Shown one piece after another: positions 8,380-29,110 of a stretch of DNA of 32,000 nt. The position numbers and the translations under genes were made by a program. Origin of the DNA: an uncultured Alphaproteobacteria bacterium (GTDB lineage: Bacteria > Pseudomonadota > Alphaproteobacteria > Rs-D84 > CACZYB01); assembly GCA_934246625.1 (NCBI GenBank), contig CAKQHZ010000001.1:450001-482000 (forward strand), given 5' to 3'. Under the pieces are notes generated by a model. That model saw only the letters and a list, made by a program, of their open reading frames with translations, was not told the origin of the DNA and ran no database searches. Numbering within the stretch: position 1 is the first letter of the stretch; each line of letters starts with the position of its first letter.

Positions 8380-8464
8380 GGGAATGTGGCGGAATTGGTA
8401 GACGCGGCGGACTCAAAATCCGCTGGGGCGACCCTTGAGAGTTCGATTCTCTCCATTCCTACCA
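8380..8464 (+). tRNA. tRNA-Leu, anticodon CAA, with encoded CCA
   Basis: Hand-folded cloverleaf. Acceptor is GGGAATG/CATTCCT (first pair G-U). D arm is GCGGAATTGGTAGACGC. Anticodon stem is GCGGA/TCCGC with loop CTCAAAA (CAA at 8414-8416). There is a long variable arm, a T arm GAGAG-TTCGATT-CTCTC, discriminator A and CCA. Confidence 0.93.
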
Positions 8465-8588
8465 AACTTTTAAAGTAAAGGCGATTGCCAAACAAGGATA
8501 CAAACTTACAATTCTAAAACTCCTCACTATCGCTGTTCGTCGTTAAGAATTATTCGTGTTTGTGTTCTCTGATTCCTGCTAAATTTAG

Positions 8589-8617
8589 AATCAGCATTTT
8601 TCGGTGCTGATTTTTTT
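8589..8617 (+). terminator. Intrinsic terminator about 125 nt downstream of tRNA-Leu
   Basis: Stem AATCAGCA/TGCTGATT, loop TTTTTCGG, followed by a T run (8611-8617). Confidence 0.6.
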
Positions 8618-8710
8618 ATGAAAATTTTCTTGTTTATTTTGAAATAATATTATAAAATGGAATTAGTTTTTATAGAAATGTGAAAACTTGGGATTAATGA
8701 GGAGAAAACT

Positions 8711-9019
8711 ATGATGAAAAAATTTCTATTATTTTTTTCTATTTTATTTTGTGTATTTTTCAAAGTGAATTCTTCCGTTTATGCAACTGTAAGCAGCAAT
8801 TCTCTTGAAAAAATTCTATTTCAATATTGTGTTCCAAAAGAAGGAAATTGTGATGTAAAAGCCACATATAAAAACGGTAAATGTATTTGTCCTGGTGATA
8901 AATTATATATGGACAGAGAATGTTTTAAACCTGTTTGTCCTTCTGGAACTTATATCTATTATAGTAACGACACAGATTCTTGTGGTGCGGGAAATTACAG
9001 AACAAAAGTCAGAAATTAA
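8711..9019 (+). CDS. Small secreted cysteine-rich protein, type 1 (QYCVP..GNCD.KATY family)
   Basis: 102 aa. GAGGAG RBS sits 6 nt upstream. Signal peptide MMKKFLLFFSILFCVFFKVNSSVYA. The mature part has 7 Cys. It is a paralogue of 28694-29110. Confidence 0.8.
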   Translation: MMKKFLLFFSILFCVFFKVNSSVYATVSSNSLEKILFQYCVPKEGNCDVKATYKNGKCICPGDKLYMDRECFKPVCPSGTYIYYSNDTDSCGAGNYRTKVRN

Positions 9020-9113: not shown

Positions 9114-10190
9114 ATGAACAATAAAAAATATATAATATCGGTAATAGGTGTGTTATCTTTTGTTGGAATTGCACACGCTGCTATTTTTCAATGCAGAACT
9201 TGTGAAGAGGGGACTTATGGTGATGGAACATCTGTAAGTTGCACAAAATGTCCGACTGGGGCAGTTTGTCCTGAGGGAACTGGAGCACCAATTTATTTAT
9301 CAAATTATAAAGATAAGTTATTATCTGTATGTGGTGAGATAGGTAAGGAAATTGCAATAGATACAGGTTTTTCTTCCAGTAATTTTGTTTCAGAAATGAT
9401 TGATAAACAAAAAGTAAAAATAAATTATAGTGGAGATATAATTAAAAAGGGAGAAAGTGGTTATAATTATGCAAGGGCATATTATGAAGTTAGTTGTTAT
9501 GATCTTGATGGTTATTATGCAAGTAGTGGATATAAAGCTATTACAGATTTTATTCAAAGCAAAATATGTAATGATGAATCAGAAGTAAAAAGTCATTTAG
9601 AACCTATGAGTTCATCATCAACTTTAACACCTGGAATATATAGGATTGATGTAGCTGGTGCCGGTGGTGGCGGTGCAGGTGGAAATGCTTGTGGATGGTG
9701 TTATGGAGCTGGTGGAGGTTATGGAGGTAATGGTGATTTGCAGACTAGATATATATATTTAGTTGATAATCAGCCTTATAATTATGTTGTTGGTGCTGGT
9801 GGTGGTAATGGTTGTGGTTCTGGTTGTAATCATCGTGGAGTAAATGGTAAGAAAGGTGGAACATCATCCTTTACTTTGTTAGGAAATGTTTTTGAGGCAT
9901 TAGGTGGAGATGGTGGAGAATCTGCACATAGTGGTTGTGATGTGTCTAATGGTAAAAATGGTGCTGCTGCTGGTAATGGTTTAGGTGGTGTTGGTGGTGA
10001 GAATAGATATGGTAACAAATGTGCTTATGATGGAAATACTGGTTGGGTAAAGATTTATCAAATTGGTATGAGAAAAACCGGTTGTCCTTCTTTAAGACCA
10101 TCTACTTCTTCTGGTGGATGTTCTTCAGGTGGTTATTTTGGCGGTTGCTCTACAGGTGGTTATTTTGGTGGTTGCTCAGGAGGATACTGA
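9114..10190 (+). CDS. Secreted protein: N-terminal cysteine-rich module (type 2) plus a glycine-rich domain and a C-terminal GGYFGGCS repeat
   Basis: 358 aa. AAGGAG RBS and signal peptide ...VGIAHA. The Cys module is FQCRTCEEGTYGDGTSVSCTKCPTGAVCPEG. The glycine-rich core is IYRIDVAGAGGGGAGG...YGAGGGYGGNG...YNYVVGAGGGNG...GKKGGTSSF...ALGGDGGES. Confidence 0.85.
   Translation: MNNKKYIISVIGVLSFVGIAHAAIFQCRTCEEGTYGDGTSVSCTKCPTGAVCPEGTGAPIYLSNYKDKLLSVCGEIGKEIAIDTGFSSSNFVSEMIDKQKVKINYSGDIIKKGESGYNYARAYYEVSCYDLDGYYASSGYKAITDFIQSKICNDESEVKSHLEPMSSSSTLTPGIYRIDVAGAGGGGAGGNACGWCYGAGGGYGGNGDLQTRYIYLVDNQPYNYVVGAGGGNGCGSGCNHRGVNGKKGGTSSFTLLGNVFEALGGDGGESAHSGCDVSNGKNGAAAGNGLGGVGGENRYGNKCAYDGNTGWVKIYQIGMRKTGCPSLRPSTSSGGCSSGGYFGGCSTGGYFGGCSGGY
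10113..10187 (+). repeat. 27-nt tandem repeat (2.8 copies) encoding GGCS(S/T)GGYF
   Basis: Units at 10113-10139, 10140-10166 and 10167-10187 (partial). They have the form ggYggWtgYtcWWca ggtggttatttt. Confidence 0.8.
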
Positions 10191-10446: not shown

Positions 10447-12966
10447 TTAAAGAGTTGCTTTTACCTCTTCTACTTCATAACATTCAAGTCTGTCGCCAAC
10501 TTGGATATCATTAAAGTTTTCAAATGAAATACCGCATTCCATTCCTGAACGAACTTCCTTTACATCATCTTTCATACGTTTAAGTTGTGCAAGTTTGCCT
10601 TCGAAAATAACGATGTTATCGCGAAGCATACGAACACCACAACCTTTCTTTACTATACCTTCGGTTACCTTACATCCAGCAGCCTTTGCCTTACCAGCAT
10701 TGAATACTTGTAATACATCGGCATATCCAATAAAGGTTTCCTTTACTACAGGGGCAAGAAGTCCAGACATAAGAACCTTTACATCATCAATAATGTTATA
10801 AATAATTGAGTAGTATCTTATATCTACTTCGTCGTGATGAGCTTGTTCCTTTGCATTGGCATTTGCACGAACATTGAAAGCAATGATTACAGAGCCAGTT
10901 GTTTTTGCAAGTGTAATATCGGATTCGTTAATACCACCAACACCAGAGTGCATAACCTTTACTTGGACCTTTTCTGATGGAATCTTTATCAAAGATTCGG
11001 CAATCGCTTCGGCTGAACCTTGGGTGTCGGCCTTGATTATAACAGGAAGTGTTTCGGCACGACCTTCTTTGATGTTTTGGAAAAGTTCTTGCCAGTTTGA
11101 TTTTTTTGCAATCATTTGGCGTTCTTTTTCTTTTCTTTTTCTGTATTCTGATACTTCGCGAGCTTTGGCTTCGGATTCAACAACAACAAAGTCATCGCCA
11201 GCAACTGGAGTTCCTTCGAATCCAAGAACGACTACTGGTTGAGAAGGTCTTGCTTCTTGAACCTTTTTACCATATTCGTCAAGGAGTTCACGAACCTTTC
11301 CAGTTGATGAACCAGATACGAAAATATCACCCTTTTTAAGGATACCTTTTTGAACAAGGATTGTTGCAACGGAACCTTTACCCTTTTCCATTTTGGCTTC
11401 AATAACGGCACCCTTTACTAATCCGTTAACGTCAGCCTTTAATTCAAGCATATCTGCTTGTAAAAGGATAAGTTCTTCCAGTTTATCAAGGTTGATTTTT
11501 TGTTTTGCTGAAATTTCAACGTCAAGAACATCACCACCCATTTTTTCAACAACTACACCTTGTTGAAGAAGGTCCATACGAACCTTTTCTGGATTTGCAT
11601 CTGGTAAATCGATTTTGTTAATTGCGACAATCATTGGAACGTTTGCTGCCTTTGCATGATTGATAGCTTCAATGGTTTGAGGCATTATTCCATCGTTTGC
11701 AGCAACAACAAGAATTACTATATCTGTGATATTAACACCACGAGCACGCATAGCTGAAAAGGCTTCGTGTCCTGGGGTATCAATGAAAGTAATTTTTCGA
11801 CCGGATTTTGATTTGATTTGGTATGCACCAATGTGTTGTGTAATACCACCAGCTTCACCACTTACAACATCAGTTTTACGGAAAGCATCAAGAAGTGATG
11901 TTTTACCATGGTCAACGTGTCCCATAACTGTTACAACAGGTGGGCGAGATTCAAATTTTTCATTTGCTGTATTTTCAACAAGAATTTCCTTTTCAATATC
12001 GGAATCAGATACACGTTTTACAGTATGACCAAATTCCATAACAATCAATTCAGCAGTGTCGGCATCAATAATTTGATTGATTGTTGCCATAATGCCAAGT
12101 TTCATCATTGTTTTGATAACATCACTGCTTTTTTCAGCCATACGGATAGCCAAATCCTTTACAGAAATTGTTTCAGGAAGTATTACTTCGTGATAAGTTT
12201 TAACTGTTTCCTTTGGTTCTTGGCGTTCCATAAATTTACGATATTGTTTTTCCTTTTGTCTTTTGATTGAGGCAAAAGAACGGCGTTTTTGATATGTGCC
12301 AACGGCTTCCATTGCAGAAGTAAGAGAATTTGATGGAGCTTCTGAAGCATCGTCTTCTTCATCAAAATCCAAATCACTGCTTGAAACGATGATATTTGAA
12401 AAGTTTATTTTTCTGTTGTCATAAGATGATTTATTCTTTTTTGATTTTTTATCATCATCAGAAGATTTATTTTTTTTACCTTTGGTTTTATAGGATTCTT
12501 CTTCCTCTTCATCATCTTCTTCTGCATAAACATCTTTGTTCTTTTTATATTTTTTTTGTTCAGAAGGTTGTTCTTCGGTTTTTATATCTGTTGAAGATGG
12601 TTTTTCTTCTGAAATAATAGTTTGAGTTTTGGTTTCAGCTTCAATTTCTTCCTCAACCTTTTTATTTAATTCTTCTTGGGCCTTTCTTTCTTGTTCGATT
12701 AGGGCAAGACGTTCACGTTCAGCCTTTGCAAGGAGTTCTTGTTCCTCCTTTGCAGATTCTTCGATACGTTTTGCATTTGCAAGAATATTTTTAAGTTTAT
12801 CGGCCTTTTTAGAATCGATTTCAGGTTGTTCAGTTGAAGGAGAAGAGGTATTTTCATTGCTTGAAAAAACACGTCTTTTCTTTATAACTTCAACCTCGAT
12901 TCCATTTGAACGAGATGTAGATGAAGGAACTTTTGTTCCAAGTTTTAATGTTAATTTTCCAGCCAT
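10447..12966 (-). CDS. infB: Translation initiation factor IF-2
   Basis: 839 aa. GTPase motifs [14 protein letters not shown] and NKID are present. The N-terminal region is low-complexity, acidic and basic. Confidence 0.97.
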
Positions 12967-16555: not shown

Positions 16556-16579
16556 GATTTAATTTTTGGAAAATTAAAA

Positions 16580-16610
16580 CTGTCATATTTTTAGTATGGC
16601 AGTTTTTTTT
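16580..16610 (+). terminator. Intrinsic terminator of the OMP gene
   Basis: Stem CTGTCATA/TATGGCAG (one G-U pair), followed by T8. Confidence 0.75.
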
Positions 16611-16611
16611 A

Positions 16612-16640
16612 TTGCCTTTTTGTTTCAAAAATGATAAATT
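16612..16640 (+). promoter_or_regulatory. Putative promoter driving leader copy A
   Basis: TTGCCT (16612-16617), 17-nt spacer, TAAATT (16635-16640), with TG at 16632-16633. Its position just after a terminator mirrors copy B. Confidence 0.35.
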
Positions 16641-16689
16641 TTTTTTAGATGTAATGAATAATTACATTTAGTATCAAGTGTATAGTGAT

Positions 16690-16900
16690 ACGGAGCTTTG
16701 AACGGCTTTTTTACTTACAAGGGTATGAATTTTGTGTGATACCGTTTGGTATCTTTTTTTATACCCAAAGCCCCAACCTTTGTTGGTTGGGGAGCTGTGG
16801 TTATACAACAGGAATATAGTCTTTGCTATAGTCTAAAAGCCTCAGAGTCATTGTAAGTATGATTGTTCAACTGCCCGACCACTATCTTTGATATGTGGGT
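16690..16900 (+). promoter_or_regulatory. Candidate structured 5' leader RNA, copy A (homologous to 28455-28657)
   Basis: Outer stem GGGTAT (16721-16726)/ATACCC (16761-16766) encloses hairpin GATACC-gttt-GGTATC (16738-16753). Next comes hairpin CCCCAACC-tttgtt-GGTTGGGG (16771-16792). The conserved block TATGATT...CCCG.CCA... (16858-16899) ends in hairpin CCAC-TATC-ttt-GATA-t-GTGG, followed by a U-rich tract. Confidence 0.5.
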
Positions 16901-16924
16901 TTATTTTATTAAAGGGAGAAAAAT

Positions 16925-17491
16925 ATGAAAATCATGAACAAAAAATTACTTTTATTATATATGTCTTTATATCCTTGTATAACAAATGCAAATGTATATA
17001 TGTGTTTGCGATGTCCTGTTGGAACTTATGGTGATGGAAAATCATCATATTGTTCACCTTGTCCAAAAATAGATGGAGCACATTATTTGGAAGATTCAAA
17101 GAATTGTGAATGGGAGTGTGATGAAGGTAAAGTTGTTGTTGCAAAATATGCGAATGGTGGAGGTTGTTGCACTGAACCAGCTAAACCAAAATGTCCTTCT
17201 GTTAAAGTTTATGTTTTCGGTAACTGTTCAGGTTCGGGTTCTCATGGAGGATCTTGTCAACTTCAATATTCAAAAACTTTGGAATGTGGAGAAAGTTTTC
17301 AAAATGATGGGAGTGCGACAAATACACCAAATGGACAATATGATTGTATAACGATGGCTTGTAGAAGCGGAGGTTTTGTTAAAAATATTAATGGAGAAAT
17401 GTGGTGTTATAAAGACTCCTATGATATGAAAAAAAATAAAAATGGACGTCATTATGATAGGTCAGGTGATGCTAAATGTCTAAAAGAGTAA
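16925..17491 (+). CDS. Secreted cysteine-rich protein, type 2 (solitary copy)
   Basis: 188 aa. GGGAGA RBS and a hydrophobic N-terminus. The module YMCLRCPVGTYGDGKSSYCSPCPK aligns with the N-termini of 9114-10190 and 29218-29871. The C-terminal YDRSGDAKCL matches YDRSGFFNCL in 29218-29871. Confidence 0.8.
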   Translation: MKIMNKKLLLLYMSLYPCITNANVYMCLRCPVGTYGDGKSSYCSPCPKIDGAHYLEDSKNCEWECDEGKVVVAKYANGGGCCTEPAKPKCPSVKVYVFGNCSGSGSHGGSCQLQYSKTLECGESFQNDGSATNTPNGQYDCITMACRSGGFVKNINGEMWCYKDSYDMKKNKNGRHYDRSGDAKCLKE

Positions 17492-21415: not shown

Positions 21416-21445
21416 TTAAATAATGTAAAATCAAATATTAAAAAA

Positions 21446-21467
21446 GGAGCAAAGTAATTTTTGCTCC
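21446..21467. terminator. Bidirectional hairpin between convergent genes (secreted protein B and rpmJ)
   Basis: Stem GGAGCAA/TTGCTCC, flanked by an A run upstream and a T-rich tract downstream. Confidence 0.6.
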
Positions 21468-21496
21468 CTTTGAATTTTATTTAAATCAGCGAAGAT

Positions 21497-21619
21497 TTAT
21501 TGTTTTGCCTTGAATCTTGGATTCTTTTTATCAATAGCATAAACACGTTTTCCGCGACGAACTAATTGGATAGTGTTACTTCTTTTTTTTGCTGATTTTA
21601 ATGAACTTAAAACTTTCAT
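21497..21619 (-). CDS. rpmJ: 50S ribosomal protein L36 (non-zinc type)
   Basis: Not in the ORF track (40 aa). Hand translation gives [48 protein letters not shown] sits upstream. It resembles the Cys-less L36 of alphaproteobacteria. Confidence 0.9.
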
Positions 21620-21734
21620 TTTTACCTCACATAATTTAATTGTTTATGTATCATATATAAAGAGTCGTAATTTGTCAAGTAAATTTATTATTTTAAAGGA
21701 AATTAGTCTTTTATATATTTAATTATAAATATTA

Positions 21735-21763
21735 TTGATTATCAAAAAAAAAATTTGTATTAT
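21735..21763 (+). promoter_or_regulatory. Putative promoter of rseP-bamA-skp
   Basis: TTGATT (21735-21740), 17-nt spacer, TATTAT (21758-21763), with an extended -10 TG. Confidence 0.45.
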
Positions 21764-21792
21764 TTCAAATTATATGAATTTAAGGAGTTATT

Positions 21793-28371: not shown

Positions 28372-28398
28372 GGTGTTAATTTTTTAACACCTTTTTTT
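28372..28398 (+). terminator. Intrinsic terminator of fabZ
   Basis: Stem GGTGTTAA/TTAACACC, loop TTTT, then T7. Confidence 0.8.
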
Positions 28399-28399
28399 G

Positions 28400-28428
28400 T
28401 TGCTTAAATCTTTATTATGTAATATCAT
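28400..28428 (+). promoter_or_regulatory. Putative promoter driving leader copy B
   Basis: TTGCTT (28400-28405), 17-nt spacer, TATCAT (28423-28428). It sits just after a terminator, like the copy A promoter. Confidence 0.3.
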
Positions 28429-28454
28429 AAAATTAGATTTGGATTTATCCAAGT

Positions 28455-28657
28455 TTAGCGTCCATAGGTGGACGTGGGACTGTCGTAAGTTCTTTATATA
28501 CTGCCGTATGTTATTTTACATACGATCTTTGTCCCCACCTTTAGTGGGGAGTCTTTGGTGTATGTCCAGAGGATATTTTTATATTCTTAAAGACCAAGGA
28601 AATCATCTTGCAGTATATATGATTTACGAACTCCCCGCCATTTATGTGATAAATGGG
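28455..28657 (+). promoter_or_regulatory. Candidate structured 5' leader RNA, copy B (homologous to 16690-16900)
   Basis: Hairpin CGTCCA-tagg-TGGACG (28459-28474). Outer stem GGGAC (28476-28480)/GTCCC (28531-28535) encloses CGTATGT-tatttt-ACATACG (28505-28524). Then hairpin CCCCAC-cttta-GTGGGG (28533-28549). The conserved block at 28618-28657 ends in the perfect hairpin CCATTTAT-gtg-ATAAATGG. Confidence 0.5.
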
Positions 28658-28693
28658 AAAAATTTTGTGATACACAAAAAAGGGGAAGAAACC

Positions 28694-29110
28694 ATGAAAA
28701 ACTTATCTAAAGTACTTTGTATTTGTGCGGGGGCTATCTCGGCAAATCCTATTAACCTTCAGGCTAAAACTTTGCTTGAAACCTTGACTCAATACTGTGT
28801 TCCGACGGTTGGCAACTGCGACAAAAAGGCTACCTACAATACCTCTGGCAACTATTGCGATTGTGCCAACATCAACAAATTCTATAACTCTTCGAATCGT
28901 TCTTGCGAGAACTGTATCCTCGGCTCTTTCGCAACCTCAGACTATAAAACTTGTGAGCCTATTCATTGCCCTGACGGCTATGTTGCGACTTTGATTTCCA
29001 AAGGGGCGTGTCCAGATGGCTATACTTTGCAACAAATCAATGTGGCTTCGGGTTGTGGCGAGGGTTATGCGTTGAAGAAGTATAATCCGGCGACGAAGAG
29101 TTTTAATTAA
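28694..29110 (+). CDS. Small secreted cysteine-rich protein, type 1 (QYCVP..GNCD.KATY family), higher-GC copy
   Basis: ATG at 28694 after AGGGGAAG. Signal peptide MKNLSKVLCICAGAISANPINLQA. LTQYCVPTVGNCDKKATYNTSGNYCDC aligns with LFQYCVPKEGNCDVKATYKNGKCIC of 8711-9019. Confidence 0.8.
   Translation: MKNLSKVLCICAGAISANPINLQAKTLLETLTQYCVPTVGNCDKKATYNTSGNYCDCANINKFYNSSNRSCENCILGSFATSDYKTCEPIHCPDGYVATLISKGACPDGYTLQQINVASGCGEGYALKKYNPATKSFN

Follow-up and report, generated by a model that had tools for sequence, protein, structure and literature searches.

Upstream region of the cysteine-rich gene

In the window, by which we mean the whole 32,000-nt stretch of DNA that was analysed, the stop codon of an OMP_b-brl gene (16555) and the ATG of a gene for a secreted cysteine-rich protein (16925) are separated by 369 nt. 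The initial annotation gave a gap of about 315 nt (16612-16924), which corresponds to the portion 3' of the upstream gene's terminator and not to the whole gap. This terminator lies outside the element described here and sets its 5' boundary. The G+C content is about 0.40 within the element and about 0.20 in the flanks. The region 16650-16924 is the leader of a transcription unit and consists of a promoter region, a hairpin (P0) and a core of about 190 nt (16691-16882). The features are as follows.

16576-16611, plus strand: intrinsic terminator of the upstream OMP_b-brl gene, a 14-pair stem (16576-16606) and then a T run (terminator scan)
16650-16666, plus strand: perfect inverted repeat TGTAAT-N5-ATTACA
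16671-16691, plus strand: P0, promoter-proximal hairpin GTATCA-agtgtatag-TGATAC, adjoining the core
16693-16708, plus strand: hairpin a:b (GAGC / GCTT; covariance-model alignment), whose loop L1, TTTGAAC (16697-16703), pairs with S2
16713-16720, plus strand: S1, ACTTACAA, pairing with loop L6, TTGTAAGT (16851-16858), as pseudoknot 2
16721-16766, plus strand: P2, GGGTAT..ATACCC around GATACC-gttt-GGTATC, an enlarged form of the family hairpin
16771-16778, plus strand: segment c, C-rich strand CCCCAACC, complementary to GGTTGGGG
16785-16794, plus strand: 5' strand of the closing helix, GGTT + GGGGAG, pairing with 16871-16880 at 9 of 10 positions
16795-16845, plus strand: P4 (CTGTGGT / CCTCAG), enclosing the conserved junction TATACAACA, P5 (16811-16834) and AAAAG
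16847-16863, plus strand: P6 hairpin (TCAT / ATGA) with loop L6
16864-16870, plus strand: S2, TGTTCAA, pairing with L1 as pseudoknot 1 (GTTCAA:TTGAAC in this copy)
16871-16880, plus strand: 3' strand of the closing helix, CTGCCC + GACC, whose final CC (16879-16880) forms the first two bases of the terminator stem
16879-16910, plus strand: terminator-like hairpin CCACTATC-ttt-GATATGTGG (stem-loop 16879-16898) and then GTTTATTTTATT, about 20 nt 5' of the ribosome-binding site (RBS)
16914-16927, plus strand: RBS GGGAGA (at 16914) and ATG of the cysteine-rich secreted protein gene (188 aa, 16925-17491)

The inverted repeat at 16650-16666 is overlapped by the -10-like TGTAATGA, which aligns with the TAATAT -10 boxes of the second copy in the window (copy B) and of a related genome (L009). 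The promoter scan reported no consensus sigma-70 site on the plus strand around this repeat. For the copy at 16691-16882 (copy A), the -10-like box is a tentative promoter candidate, assigned without confidence. Sigma-70-type -35 and -10 boxes stand just 5' of P0 in many members of the family, and in copy B, in L009 and in most relatives a P0-equivalent hairpin of other sequence immediately precedes the core. At the other end of copy A, the T tract ends at 16910 and the RBS begins at 16914, which leaves no space between them for a separate promoter. This leader position supports the earlier placement of the element in the 5' leader of the downstream gene.

The surroundings of copy A (clpP-OMP genes on one side, rubrerythrin on the other) are chromosome-like in appearance. 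In L009, a different gene lies 106 nt past the OMP gene and the element is absent at that site; therefore, the copy A leader and its gene may be an insertion. Eight syntenic loci (L001-L008) were retrieved via seven protein homologues. All of them are from the same species and about 99% identical across the locus, and the leader differs among them at a few positions only. They added no covariation for copy A and were discarded as a covariation source.

Two diverged copies in the window

The covariance model used for the search (R1) was seeded with 33 metagenomic relatives, neither window copy being included. R1 matched the window exactly twice, at 28475-28642 (56.8 bits, E 7e-11) and at 16691-16882 (31 bits, E 3e-5), and the third-ranked match had an E value of 1. 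Copy A was aligned over the full length of the model. The earlier view that a structured element occurs twice in the window is thus borne out, with A and B as diverged copies. A comparison of the region with the rest of the window by blastn and blastn-short did not find the second copy; the similarity of the two copies is structural and was detected by nhmmer and the covariance model only. Two other stretches considered as copy B, 8462-8710 (after a tRNA) and 21416-21792, do not contain the element. The features of copy B are as follows.

28397-28425, plus strand: promoter TTGTTG-N17-TAATAT, upstream of the core
28433-28458: extra 5' hairpin of copy B
28460-28473: P0 of copy B
28475-28642, plus strand: core of copy B

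Copy B precedes a cysteine-rich gene of the 'YCVP' type (ATG at 28694), and its fold has a z score of -6.6. The GAAAAATTTTG noted earlier 3' of the copy B hairpin is present at 28657-28667. The element accounts for the long gaps before two cysteine-rich genes of the window. R1 found no copy at the other two (8711-9019 and 9114-10190).

A two-domain pseudoknotted fold

As an RNA, the region 16690-16912 folds with a z score of -5.6, and none of 200 shuffled sequences was as stable. The initial annotation had named covariation analysis as a check on the element and a lack of structural conservation in homologues, together with uniform read-through, as evidence against it. Across 47 sequences, the pseudoknotted structure was 87.9% paired, compared with 72.4% in shuffles, and contained 404 double-change (compensatory) cells against 139.5; this number was not equalled in any of 500 shuffles. 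Slid controls were at most 52% paired. The helices outside the model (a:b, P6, the closing helix and a P2-loop pseudoknot) were 87.8% paired and held 127 double-change cells, compared with 54 in shuffles. The structure is therefore conserved in homologues, with abundant compensatory changes, and the refuting test set out in the initial annotation does not go against the element.

The predicted fold supported in this way comprises six helices and three pseudoknots. The core is a compact two-domain RNA. In the 3' domain, a 10-bp closing helix surrounds P4/P5 and P6. The 5' domain (hairpin a:b and P2) is docked on the 3' domain by two hypervariable pseudoknot helices, L1:S2 and S1:L6. L1:S2 is complementary throughout the family despite its variability. 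S1:L6 has eight Watson-Crick pairs in copy A, and 7 of 7 pairs are changed on both sides in the family. Helix a:b is supported across the family by variants such as GGAG/CUUC and GAAC/GUUC, and P2 covaries as well. The closing helix is 94.5% paired, with GGGGAG invariant and compensatory changes in the outer four pairs. In P4, 8 of 8 pairs show changes on both sides. Although P6 is not part of the covariance model, it is 82-90% paired, with both-side changes at 4/4 pairs. The junction nucleotides GYGUAUGUYCAGAG / CUUAAAG are invariant in the family. Copy A carries the core variant CAACAGG..CTAAAAG instead of ATGTYCAGAG..CTTAAAG, and shares it with the rhizobial plasmid members L072, L074, L075 and L078, in which the P5 pairs are changed on both sides. 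P5 has an invariant G-U closing pair, and further G-U pairs are common elsewhere in the fold.

The earlier description as nested, separate hairpins was right about a structured element but incomplete, as the supported fold is pseudoknotted. The nested stems at 16721-16766 are present and constitute P2, and the 3' block at 16858-16899 is also present. The G+C-rich hairpin at 16771-16792 (CCCCAACC..GGTTGGGG) is present as letters, but its pairing lacks covariation support and amounts at most to an alternative; the 3' arm, GGTTGGGGAG, is instead matched with CTGCCCGACC in the closing helix. The c:d pairing was 70.8% paired, no better than shuffles or slid controls. The minimum-free-energy structure, a long closing rod with the CCCCAACC/GGTTGGGG hairpin, was rejected as the native fold, since helices a:e and c:d do no better than the controls and the competing a:b, P6 and d:e covary; we consider the rod an artefact of nested-only folding. 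A resemblance to the hammerhead (CUGAUGAG in some P2 loops) was dismissed, there being no stem II and no Rfam match.

Distribution of the family and its downstream genes

R1 found 66 copies in the fetched loci, and the family matches 234 alphaproteobacterial plasmid records. These records come from Agrobacterium, Rhizobium, Bradyrhizobium and other genera, and the same branch is also present in soil, water and gut metagenomes. Most relatives are carried by plasmids or phages. Both window copies are chromosomal in appearance and lie 5' of secreted cysteine-rich protein genes. Tandem arrays of the element occur in L040, L048, L063 and L081. In Rhizobium etli p42d, Chelativorans, Shinella and Ketogulonicigenium, annotated genes begin on the same strand 28-64 nt 3' of the element. 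The genes following the relatives include XRE-type HTH regulators, traM, a DUF2285 gene, a MarR regulator, a large serine recombinase, a PD-(D/E)XK protein, small membrane proteins and phage antirepressors. Since the family precedes many unrelated genes, mostly on plasmids and phages, the element is not a regulator specific to cysteine-rich genes. The initial proposal that it tracks this gene family is unsupported on the same ground, and also because two of the four cysteine-rich genes in the window have no copy.

The initial annotation also proposed a shared regulatory input and named redox, metal and cysteine conditions for testing it; an input of that kind would make the element a small-molecule or ion riboswitch with a ligand that reports redox, metal or cysteine status. 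The RNA is large, has invariant junction nucleotides and three pseudoknots, and forms an aptamer-like structure backed by covariation; the terminator overlaps the closing helix in the manner of an ON-type riboswitch. With ON-type transcriptional riboswitches it shares a covarying pseudoknotted RNA in the 5' leader and a closing helix whose 3' strand runs into the 5' arm of the hairpin or terminator that follows. It differs from them in having neither a known ligand nor a coherent gene set, in its hypervariable tertiary helices, and in its spread mainly by mobile elements. Mobile-element regulators, toxins and antirepressors dominate the gene associations, which show no transporter or metabolic theme; the absence of the element from half of the window's four cysteine-rich genes also argues against such a sensor. 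Moreover, hypervariable docking helices suit nucleic-acid recognition better than a fixed ligand pocket. We found no support for a redox, metal or cysteine input, the downstream genes being mutually unrelated and too diverse for inferring one coherent signal, and we consider a riboswitch of this kind distinctly improbable.

Another reading is a function at the DNA level, with the RNA fold as a by-product: a miniature inverted-repeat mobile element, an invertible promoter or, in view of the association with plasmids, an Frpo-type single-stranded-DNA promoter. The minus strand also folds well (z = -4.9), and many relatives reside on conjugative plasmids beside toprim/primase-like and DEAD-box helicase genes, which may mark the part of the plasmid transferred first to the recipient. 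However, folding favours the plus strand over the minus strand by 12 kcal/mol, the pseudoknots covary, and G-U pairs are frequent and, at P5, invariant. In addition, ordinary double-stranded sigma-70 promoters lie upstream, no conserved -35 and -10 boxes are found within the stem, and the 32 kb contain two diverged copies only. The Frpo-like promoter was rejected on account of the ordinary upstream promoters and the frequent G-U pairs. Any DNA-level reading is already disfavoured, and we give it hardly any weight.

Relationship to sRNA-Xcc1

sRNA-Xcc1 is an 88-nt RNA of Xanthomonas campestris, found in integron cassettes, transposons, plasmids and phages. The 3' domain of the element is homologous to the Rfam family sRNA-Xcc1 (RF02221), and the 5' domain (a:b and P2) is missing from the Rfam model. 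RF02221 scored 22.8-35.1 bits against the 3' domain of relatives (the best being 35.1, 32.6, 31.3, 30.4 and 29.8), below its gathering threshold of 53. It gave no match on copy A at E <= 10 and none over the whole window at the gathering threshold; an Rfam scan of 20 type-I relatives returned nothing at E <= 0.1. The link came to light only when plasmid-type members were scanned, and in small searches.

The plasmid-type member L074 aligns with RF02221 helix for helix. The aligned parts are the GGYCGGGG..CCCCGRYC closing helix, the inner stem, the AUACAA..hairpin..GAA core, the second hairpin and the U-rich linker. Copy A has the Xcc1-type architecture of a G+C-rich closing helix (GgCcGGggGG / CccCCgGcC), an AUACAA-type inner stem-loop and a second hairpin: GGTTGGGGAG and CTGCCCGACC pair at 9/10 positions, P4/P5 carries TATACAACA, and P6 spans 16847-16863. 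A likeness to the Xcc1 consensus AUACAAUACCC is also evident in the core of copy A, UAUACAACAGG. Both RNAs stand directly 5' of a same-strand gene. sRNA-Xcc1 is reported upstream of symE (bioRxiv 10.1101/2025.06.18.660453) and of an ORF6N-domain gene (bioRxiv 10.1101/2025.06.18.660453, 10.1101/2020.03.17.996009), and its neighbours also include BRO-N and Ant genes. There are two differences. First, L6 and S2, which the Rfam model leaves unpaired, are engaged here in covarying pseudoknots. Second, the window copies appear chromosomal and precede genes for secreted cysteine-rich proteins.

This kinship bears on whether the element is a gene in its own right for a trans-acting small RNA, with a separate promoter and terminator and an incidental position before the cysteine-rich gene, which would be expressed only by read-through. 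Rfam lists sRNA-Xcc1 among small RNA genes, and Chen et al. 2011, as cited in PMC12189769, call it trans-acting in their title. Work on its function consists of expression analyses and predicted targets (PMC2996969, PMC12189769). Hairpins of terminator type, with T tracts, follow copy A, L012, L009(-), L063, L023 and L067, and tandem arrays are found in Xylella (PMC12189769) as in the four loci named above. On the other hand, wherever annotation or a clear ORF exists, a same-strand gene follows within tens of nucleotides, and copy A leaves the downstream gene no room for a promoter of its own. The window was scanned for bipartite L6 + S2 targets; apart from the 5' domain of the element itself, it gave weak matches of the sort expected in A+T-rich sequence and no convincing trans target for copy A or copy B. 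We regard an independent trans-acting RNA as quite unlikely.

Comparison with c4 antisense RNA

c4 RNA of phage P1 is reported to block icd/ant translation in work by Citron and Schuster (1990/1992) and Hartmann (1995). The likeness to c4 RNAs (P1/P7; RF01695, c4-a1b1 RF03163; IsrK and the N15 CA RNAs) consists in a leader-encoded structured RNA with two short recognition segments and complementary words upstream in the same transcript, where a1 and b1 correspond to L1 and S1. Copy A has both words (L1:S2 as TTGAAC:GTTCAA and S1:L6 as ACTTACAA:TTGTAAGT), and these pairings show the strongest covariation of the family. A tRNA-like helix with NCCA on its 3' side would make a suitable RNase P substrate. 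Compared with c4, the present fold is larger and has a third pseudoknot, and the two share no similarity in sequence or by covariance model. The Rfam c4, IsrK and c4-a1b1 models gave no match on the element in any scan; the sole c4-a1b1 match lay elsewhere in L077 and was insignificant (E 0.69).

A trans-acting c4 RNA represses Ant synthesis (PMC8546580). By analogy, the element might repress the gene that follows it by an antisense mechanism. Release of the 3' domain from the leader, perhaps through an RNase P cut at the tRNA-like closing helix, would let L6 and S2 pair with repeats of the S1 and L1 words in the translation-initiation region, and translation would be blocked. All five phage relatives from gamma-proteobacteria (L079-L083) repeat the L1 and S1 words at the Shine-Dalgarno sequence or start codon of the antirepressor gene, as c4 does with a2 and b2. 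The L6 + S2 complementarity there is 1.46-2.00 of 2, and at least 98% of 52 background regions score lower. Furthermore, the two pairing helices are hypervariable, as specificity determinants would be; ACCA or ACCT stands 3' of the closing helix in 34 of 64 members; and the 88-nt sRNA-Xcc1, mapped in Xanthomonas campestris only, has its 5' end at the closing helix (PMC2996969).

A search for such words at the element's own RBS, made in three ways, was positive for the phage members and negative for the alphaproteobacterial ones, both window copies included, where no a2/b2 words were detectable. Among 52 members of this type, the own translation-initiation regions were not enriched in complementarity relative to those of other members (Wilcoxon p = 0.33-0.53), and over 160 nt downstream p was 0.077. 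In copy A, S2 scores 0.71 and L6 0.38, and 29% of unrelated regions are equally good. A TGAAC-N7-TACTT at 16935-16951 mirrors the TGAAC-N8-TACTT of the 5' domain, but this 5+5-nt match is post hoc and lies in A+T-rich sequence; the closing helix of copy A is followed by ACTA and not ACCA. Taken as the mechanism of copy A, c4-like repression of the downstream gene appears unlikely to us.

Terminator-like end and a possible switch

As RNA, the terminator-like hairpin of copy A reads CCACUAUC-uuu-GAUAUGUGG and then GUUUAUUUUAUU. It has 8 pairs, one bulge, 3 G-C pairs and a stability of -5.3 kcal/mol, and the stem is followed by a tail of 7 T in 9 nt. The consensus terminator scan did not report the hairpin at 16879-16898. 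Thus, the terminator or attenuator proposed earlier is right as to the hairpin and the T tract about 20 nt before the RBS, but the hairpin is weak and was missed by the scan. The terminal hairpin of copy A could be an attenuator.

In most of the 62 relatives examined, the hairpin begins 0-2 nt past CCCC, so that GRYC is common to the hairpin and the closing helix. The two overlap by 2 nt in copy A and by 3-4 nt in most relatives. T-rich tails after the hairpin are found in about 12 of the 62 members. In many G+C-rich relatives, the hairpin has no T tract; therefore, termination may not be the general read-out of the family.

From the overlap in copy A, we infer a regulatory role and the direction of a switch. 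The element would act in cis on the cysteine-rich gene, after transcription start, as a fold-or-terminate leader: the final bases of the closing helix's 3' strand also belong to the 5' arm of an intrinsic terminator, which is weak. Complete formation of the closing helix would block the terminator, and transcription would read through into the gene. When the 3' strand is free, transcription would terminate and give an RNA of about 230 nt. One route to the free strand would be the holding of GGTTGGGG by the C-rich segment c, an alternative pairing that could release the 3' strand, although it has no covariation support. The balance might be shifted by a ligand or a protein, by an RNA acting in trans, or by processing of the RNase P type at the tRNA-like helix. 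We rate the chances of this cis-acting leader as about even.

Several observations weigh against a fold-or-terminate leader. The overlap in copy A is 2 nt only and the terminator is weak; the syntenic loci contribute no covariation for copy A; many G+C-rich relatives lack the T tract; the diversity of the downstream genes yields no coherent signal; the c:d pairing needed for the 'off' state does not covary; and the phage relatives appear to be antisense RNAs and not structural switches.

A broader proposal joins the cis-acting leader to the likeness with c4. The alphaproteobacterial branch, including both window copies, would be a new class of cis-acting RNA sensor derived from a c4-like antisense scaffold. 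The 5' domain would permanently occupy both antisense segments and so form a triple-pseudoknot receptor, read out by the closing helix against the terminator or RBS hairpin. Such a receptor might respond to a metabolite or second messenger, to a factor of the tRNA or RNase P type, or to a plasmid- or phage-encoded protein. We advance this sensor class tentatively, as a possibility with the greater probability against it.

Significance of the element

The family is widespread yet half-described, its 3' half being known as sRNA-Xcc1 and its 5' domain being absent from Rfam. The catalogued sRNA-Xcc1 covers the 3' half only; the complete RNA is larger, has two domains and is pseudoknotted, and it is here extended to a branch beyond detection by the Rfam model. 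For this window, the idea of a dedicated regulator of the cysteine-rich family is removed. In the phage members, antirepressor control of the c4 type through repeated words at the RBS offers a testable mechanism for a family in which sRNA-Xcc1 has so far had predicted targets only. On rhizobial plasmids, the element precedes traM, DUF2285 and HTH genes, and therefore may be an overlooked layer of conjugation control; our literature search on an alphaproteobacterial leader 5' of traM or DUF2285 genes found nothing relevant. If the sensor class is real, one structured RNA would govern both the regulators of rhizobial conjugative plasmids (traM, DUF2285, XRE and MarR genes) and the hypervariable secreted cysteine-rich proteins of a gut alphaproteobacterium.

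The copy A leader

The gap between the stop codon of the OMP_b-brl gene (16555) and the ATG (16925) of the gene for a 188-aa cysteine-rich secreted protein is 369 nt. All of the features that the initial annotation named for this leader, copy A (nested stems, GC-rich arms, end hairpin and RBS), were found in the sequence, together with a terminator of the upstream gene.

Features of the copy A locus
16576-16606: the upstream gene's own terminator, within the first 55 nt of the gap
16721-16766: nested stems
16771-16792: CCCCAACC..GGTTGGGG, annotated as a GC-rich hairpin
16879-16898: hairpin CCACTATC-ttt-GATATGTGG, then GTTTATTTTATT
16914: RBS GGGAGA

The G+C content was ~0.40 across 16700-16850 compared with ~0.20 on both flanks. 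The RNA of 16690-16912 folded at -72.1 kcal/mol on the plus strand (z = -5.6), and the minus strand of this region folded at -59.7 kcal/mol. A perfect inverted repeat, TGTAAT-N5-ATTACA (16650-16666), lies directly 5' of hairpin P0 and shares bases with the -10-like TGTAATGA. The repeat resembles an operator at which a dimeric protein would bind DNA.

Collection of related elements

BLAST detected no second copy within the window. A search with nhmmer located one at ~28440-28670, the site of the annotated GAAAAATTTTG, and also a third copy, from L009, a related genome. Copy B, as the former is called, and the L009 copy share the same folded architecture (z = -6.6 and -5.2). Searching by protein homology to the cysteine-rich gene reached only loci of the same species, ~99% identical over the locus; their leaders differed at few positions, and the covariation signal was absent among them. 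Five related genomes (L009-L013), two of which are labelled Alphaproteobacteria in the source records, were reached through the OMP gene and added copies in L011 and L012, and L009 proved to have another, divergent one. One metagenome scan with a pattern made from the conserved blocks, GGGG-N12-ATGTYCAGAG-N(6-30)-CTTAAAG-N(25-55)-CCCG, yielded 56 loci that spanned A+T-rich to G+C-rich composition. A blastn search of plasmids showed that cultured Alphaproteobacteria also carry the element (Novosphingobium, Chelativorans, Shinella, Rhizobium, Paracoccus and Ketogulonicigenium). With the Ketogulonicigenium variant as the query, 234 plasmid records matched, including 79 from Agrobacterium, 67 from Rhizobium and 19 from Bradyrhizobium; 185 of the 234 were conjugative.

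Two copies lie back to back in L009, in opposite orientation (11510-11660, minus strand; 11831-12000, plus strand). One is 5' of an XRE-type HTH gene and has a strong terminator at its end; the other is 5' of a 'YCVP' cysteine-rich gene, which is syntenic with copy B. Tandem or clustered copies on a single contig occurred in L040, L048, L063 and L081 (609-768 and 1115-1305), recalling the five tandem copies of the RNA sRNA-Xcc1 in a Xylella genomic island (PMC12189769). In the plasmid-type members L070-L074, a further conserved hairpin, GCGGGGGCGUACCGC with loop GGGCGUA, separates core and downstream gene, ~25 nt after the core. LuxR and AHL-synthase quorum-sensing genes adjoin the element in L070 and L071. 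In L077 and L078 (Agrobacterium pAt and Afipia pOC167), it sits within a conserved conjugative-plasmid backbone, whose opposite strand carries DUF3991/toprim, DUF1419, DUF3085 and large DEAD/DEAH-box helicase genes upstream of the element; Afipia pOC167 also has an AHL-synthase gene ~2 kb downstream.

The element folds with pseudoknots

From 5' to 3', the segments are P0; a, L1, b; S1; P2; c; d; the P4 5' strand; a junction; P5; CUUAAAG; the P4 3' strand; P6 with loop L6; S2; and e. Segments d (GGGGAG) and e (CUCCCCG) are invariant, and the junction between the P4 5' strand and P5 is GYGUAUGUYCAGAG. Minimum-free-energy folding gave a long closing 'rod' and RNAalifold another nested fold, a disagreement that we settled by looking over the alignments. 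The pseudoknotted model comprises helices a:b, P2, the closing helix d:e extended by GGYC:GRYC, P4, P5 and P6, and pseudoknots L1:S2 and S1:L6. Over 47 sequences it was 87.9% paired compared with 72.4% in column shuffles, and slid controls were at most 52% paired. The number of cells changed on both sides was 404 compared with 139.5 for shuffles, and not one of the 500 shuffles came up to 404. A third pseudoknot joins the P2 loop to 4 nt downstream, with compensatory changes at all four pairs.

The covariance model R1 was built from 33 G+C-rich metagenomic sequences with only L1:S2, S1:L6, P2, P4 and P5 modelled. On its 66-sequence alignment, the helices absent from it (a:b, P6, d:e and the P2-loop pseudoknot) were 87.8% paired, with 127 double-change cells compared with 54 in shuffles. 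The helices peculiar to the rod, a:e and c:d, did not outperform the controls, whether shuffled or slid (75.4% vs. 74.8%). Given that these stayed at control level while the omitted helices still covaried, we rejected the rod as an artefact of squeezing true pseudoknot helices into a nested structure. The conserved structured leader with a terminator-like end proposed in the initial annotation was upheld and its stems are present; its GC-rich hairpin, c:d, stayed at control level and can be no more than an alternative pairing.

The seed of R1 contained neither window copy. With filters off, R1 found exactly two sites over the 32-kb window, both full-length matches: copy B (28475-28642; 56.8 bits, E 7e-11) and copy A (16691-16882; 31 bits, E 3e-5). 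Both nhmmer and R1 bear out the second copy claimed for the window. Copy A is more divergent than copy B. Its P2 is an enlarged, nested double hairpin, and its junction reads UAUACAACAGGAA..UCUAAAAG in place of UAUGUYCAGAG..CUUAAAG. This 'CAACAGG' variant is also found in the rhizobial plasmid members L072, L074, L075 and L078, with base pairs at the P5 foot altered on both sides. We hold with high confidence that family membership and fold are secure.

Relationship to sRNA-Xcc1

No Rfam family reached threshold on any element member scanned. Sub-threshold matches to RF02221 (sRNA-Xcc1; 87 model positions, gathering threshold 53 bits) recurred in plasmid-type members (35.1, 32.6, 31.3 and 29.8 bits) and in type-I members (30.4, 24.5 and 22.8 bits), every match spanning the 3' domain from d to e. 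In the alignment, the closing helix, inner stem, AUACAA core, second hairpin and U-rich linker each have their counterpart in sRNA-Xcc1. This 88-nt RNA was mapped in Xanthomonas campestris (PMC2996969) and lies upstream of symE on the same strand in integron cassettes (bioRxiv 10.1101/2025.06.18.660453) and upstream of an ORF6N-domain gene in APSE phages (bioRxiv 10.1101/2020.03.17.996009); evidence for its function consists solely of expression data and predicted targets.

E. coli prophages carry the same RNA, as do Stx, Aaphi23 and Pasteurella phages; the gene that follows it is of the BRO-N, AntA/AntB or Ant type. These loci carry the complete two-domain architecture (sigma-70 promoter, a:b, L1:S2, S1:L6 and closing helix), which indicates that the Rfam family covers only half of the RNA. 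A second covariance model from all 66 members, R2, detected two of the five phage members full length (L082, 26.4 bits, E 2e-4; L081, 20.5 bits, E 0.004).

Phage members resemble c4 RNA

In all five phage and prophage members (L079-L083; E. coli prophages and Stx2a, Aaphi23 and Pasteurella phages), the L1 and S1 words appear again where translation of the antirepressor gene starts, at its Shine-Dalgarno sequence or start codon. L080 has ACTAGAACTTCAAAG upstream and ACTAAAACTTCAAAGGAGG at the RBS; in L082, ACAAACAG is repeated as ACAAACAGGAG. The L6+S2 complementarity of these five to their own translation-initiation regions scored 1.46-2.00 of 2, exceeding at least 98% of 52 background regions. 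The phage members thus share the logic of the P1/P7 c4 RNA. According to what Citron & Schuster and Hartmann et al. reportedly described, c4 has a1 and b1 upstream, a' and b' in the RNA and a2 and b2 at the icd RBS, and the RNA is said to be processed by RNase P. c4 represses Ant synthesis in trans (PMC8546580).

ACCA or ACCT stands directly 3' of the 10-bp closing helix in 34 of the 64 members of alignment A6. This tRNA-acceptor-like signal suggests RNase P processing and could account for the 5' end mapped in Xanthomonas.

Genes downstream of the element

In the annotation, the element was taken to follow the family of cysteine-rich genes. This was not supported: two of the four such genes in the window lack a copy, and the partners are unrelated. 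XRE HTH genes follow the L009 minus-strand copy and the L012 element, traM follows L071, a DUF2285 gene L074, and HTH and MarR regulators L076 and L077; other downstream genes encode a large serine recombinase, a PD-(D/E)XK protein, small membrane proteins and antirepressors. With members preceding unrelated genes, the suggested redox, metal or cysteine sensing found no support. The two cysteine-rich secreted protein genes without a leader element are at 8711-9019 and 9114-10190, both downstream of a tRNA gene with a long variable arm (8380-8461). The second has Gly-rich repeats and matches Gly_rich_2 weakly.

In L009, the OMP gene is followed by another gene and no element, so leader and gene look like an inserted module. 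Among the conspecific strains (L001-L008), the cysteine-rich gene (16925-17491) is hypervariable (67-97% amino-acid identity), with a 120-nt segment (17050-17170) duplicated in L001-L004; the flanking genes and leader are ~99% identical.

A proposed fold-or-terminate leader in copy A

Among 52 alphaproteobacterial-type members, L6/S2 complementarity to a member's own initiation region showed no excess over that to other members' regions (p = 0.33-0.53), and a repeat search over 160 nt gave p = 0.077. The only such match in copy A is TGAAC-N7-TACTT at 16935-16951. On these sequence comparisons, the window copies do not follow the c4 scheme.

A hairpin that starts 0-2 nt after CCCC is conserved in most of 62 members; its GRYC also belongs to the closing helix, in the 3' strand. 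T-rich tails follow the hairpin in ~12 of the 62. The copy A end hairpin, annotated as a terminator, has 7 T in the next 9 nt and shares CC (16879-16880) with the closing helix. Since a further promoter would not fit ahead of the RBS, we prefer a cis-acting fold-or-terminate leader. A fully formed closing helix would block the terminator and allow read-through; an open one, possibly with GGTTGGGG held by CCCCAACC, would lead to termination. Overlap and leader position are shown here; the attenuator, with its direction and trigger, is our reasoned inference. The combined statement, that copy A is a family member with this fold and an attenuator, stands at about an even chance.

RNAs of this kind are already known, namely sRNA-Xcc1 and, functionally, the c4-like leader RNAs. 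Within the scope of Rfam 15 and the searchable literature, the new elements are the 5' domain, the three pseudoknots, the RBS repeats in phage members, a large alphaproteobacterial branch missed by the Rfam model and, in a gut alphaproteobacterium, the association with cysteine-rich proteins that are secreted.
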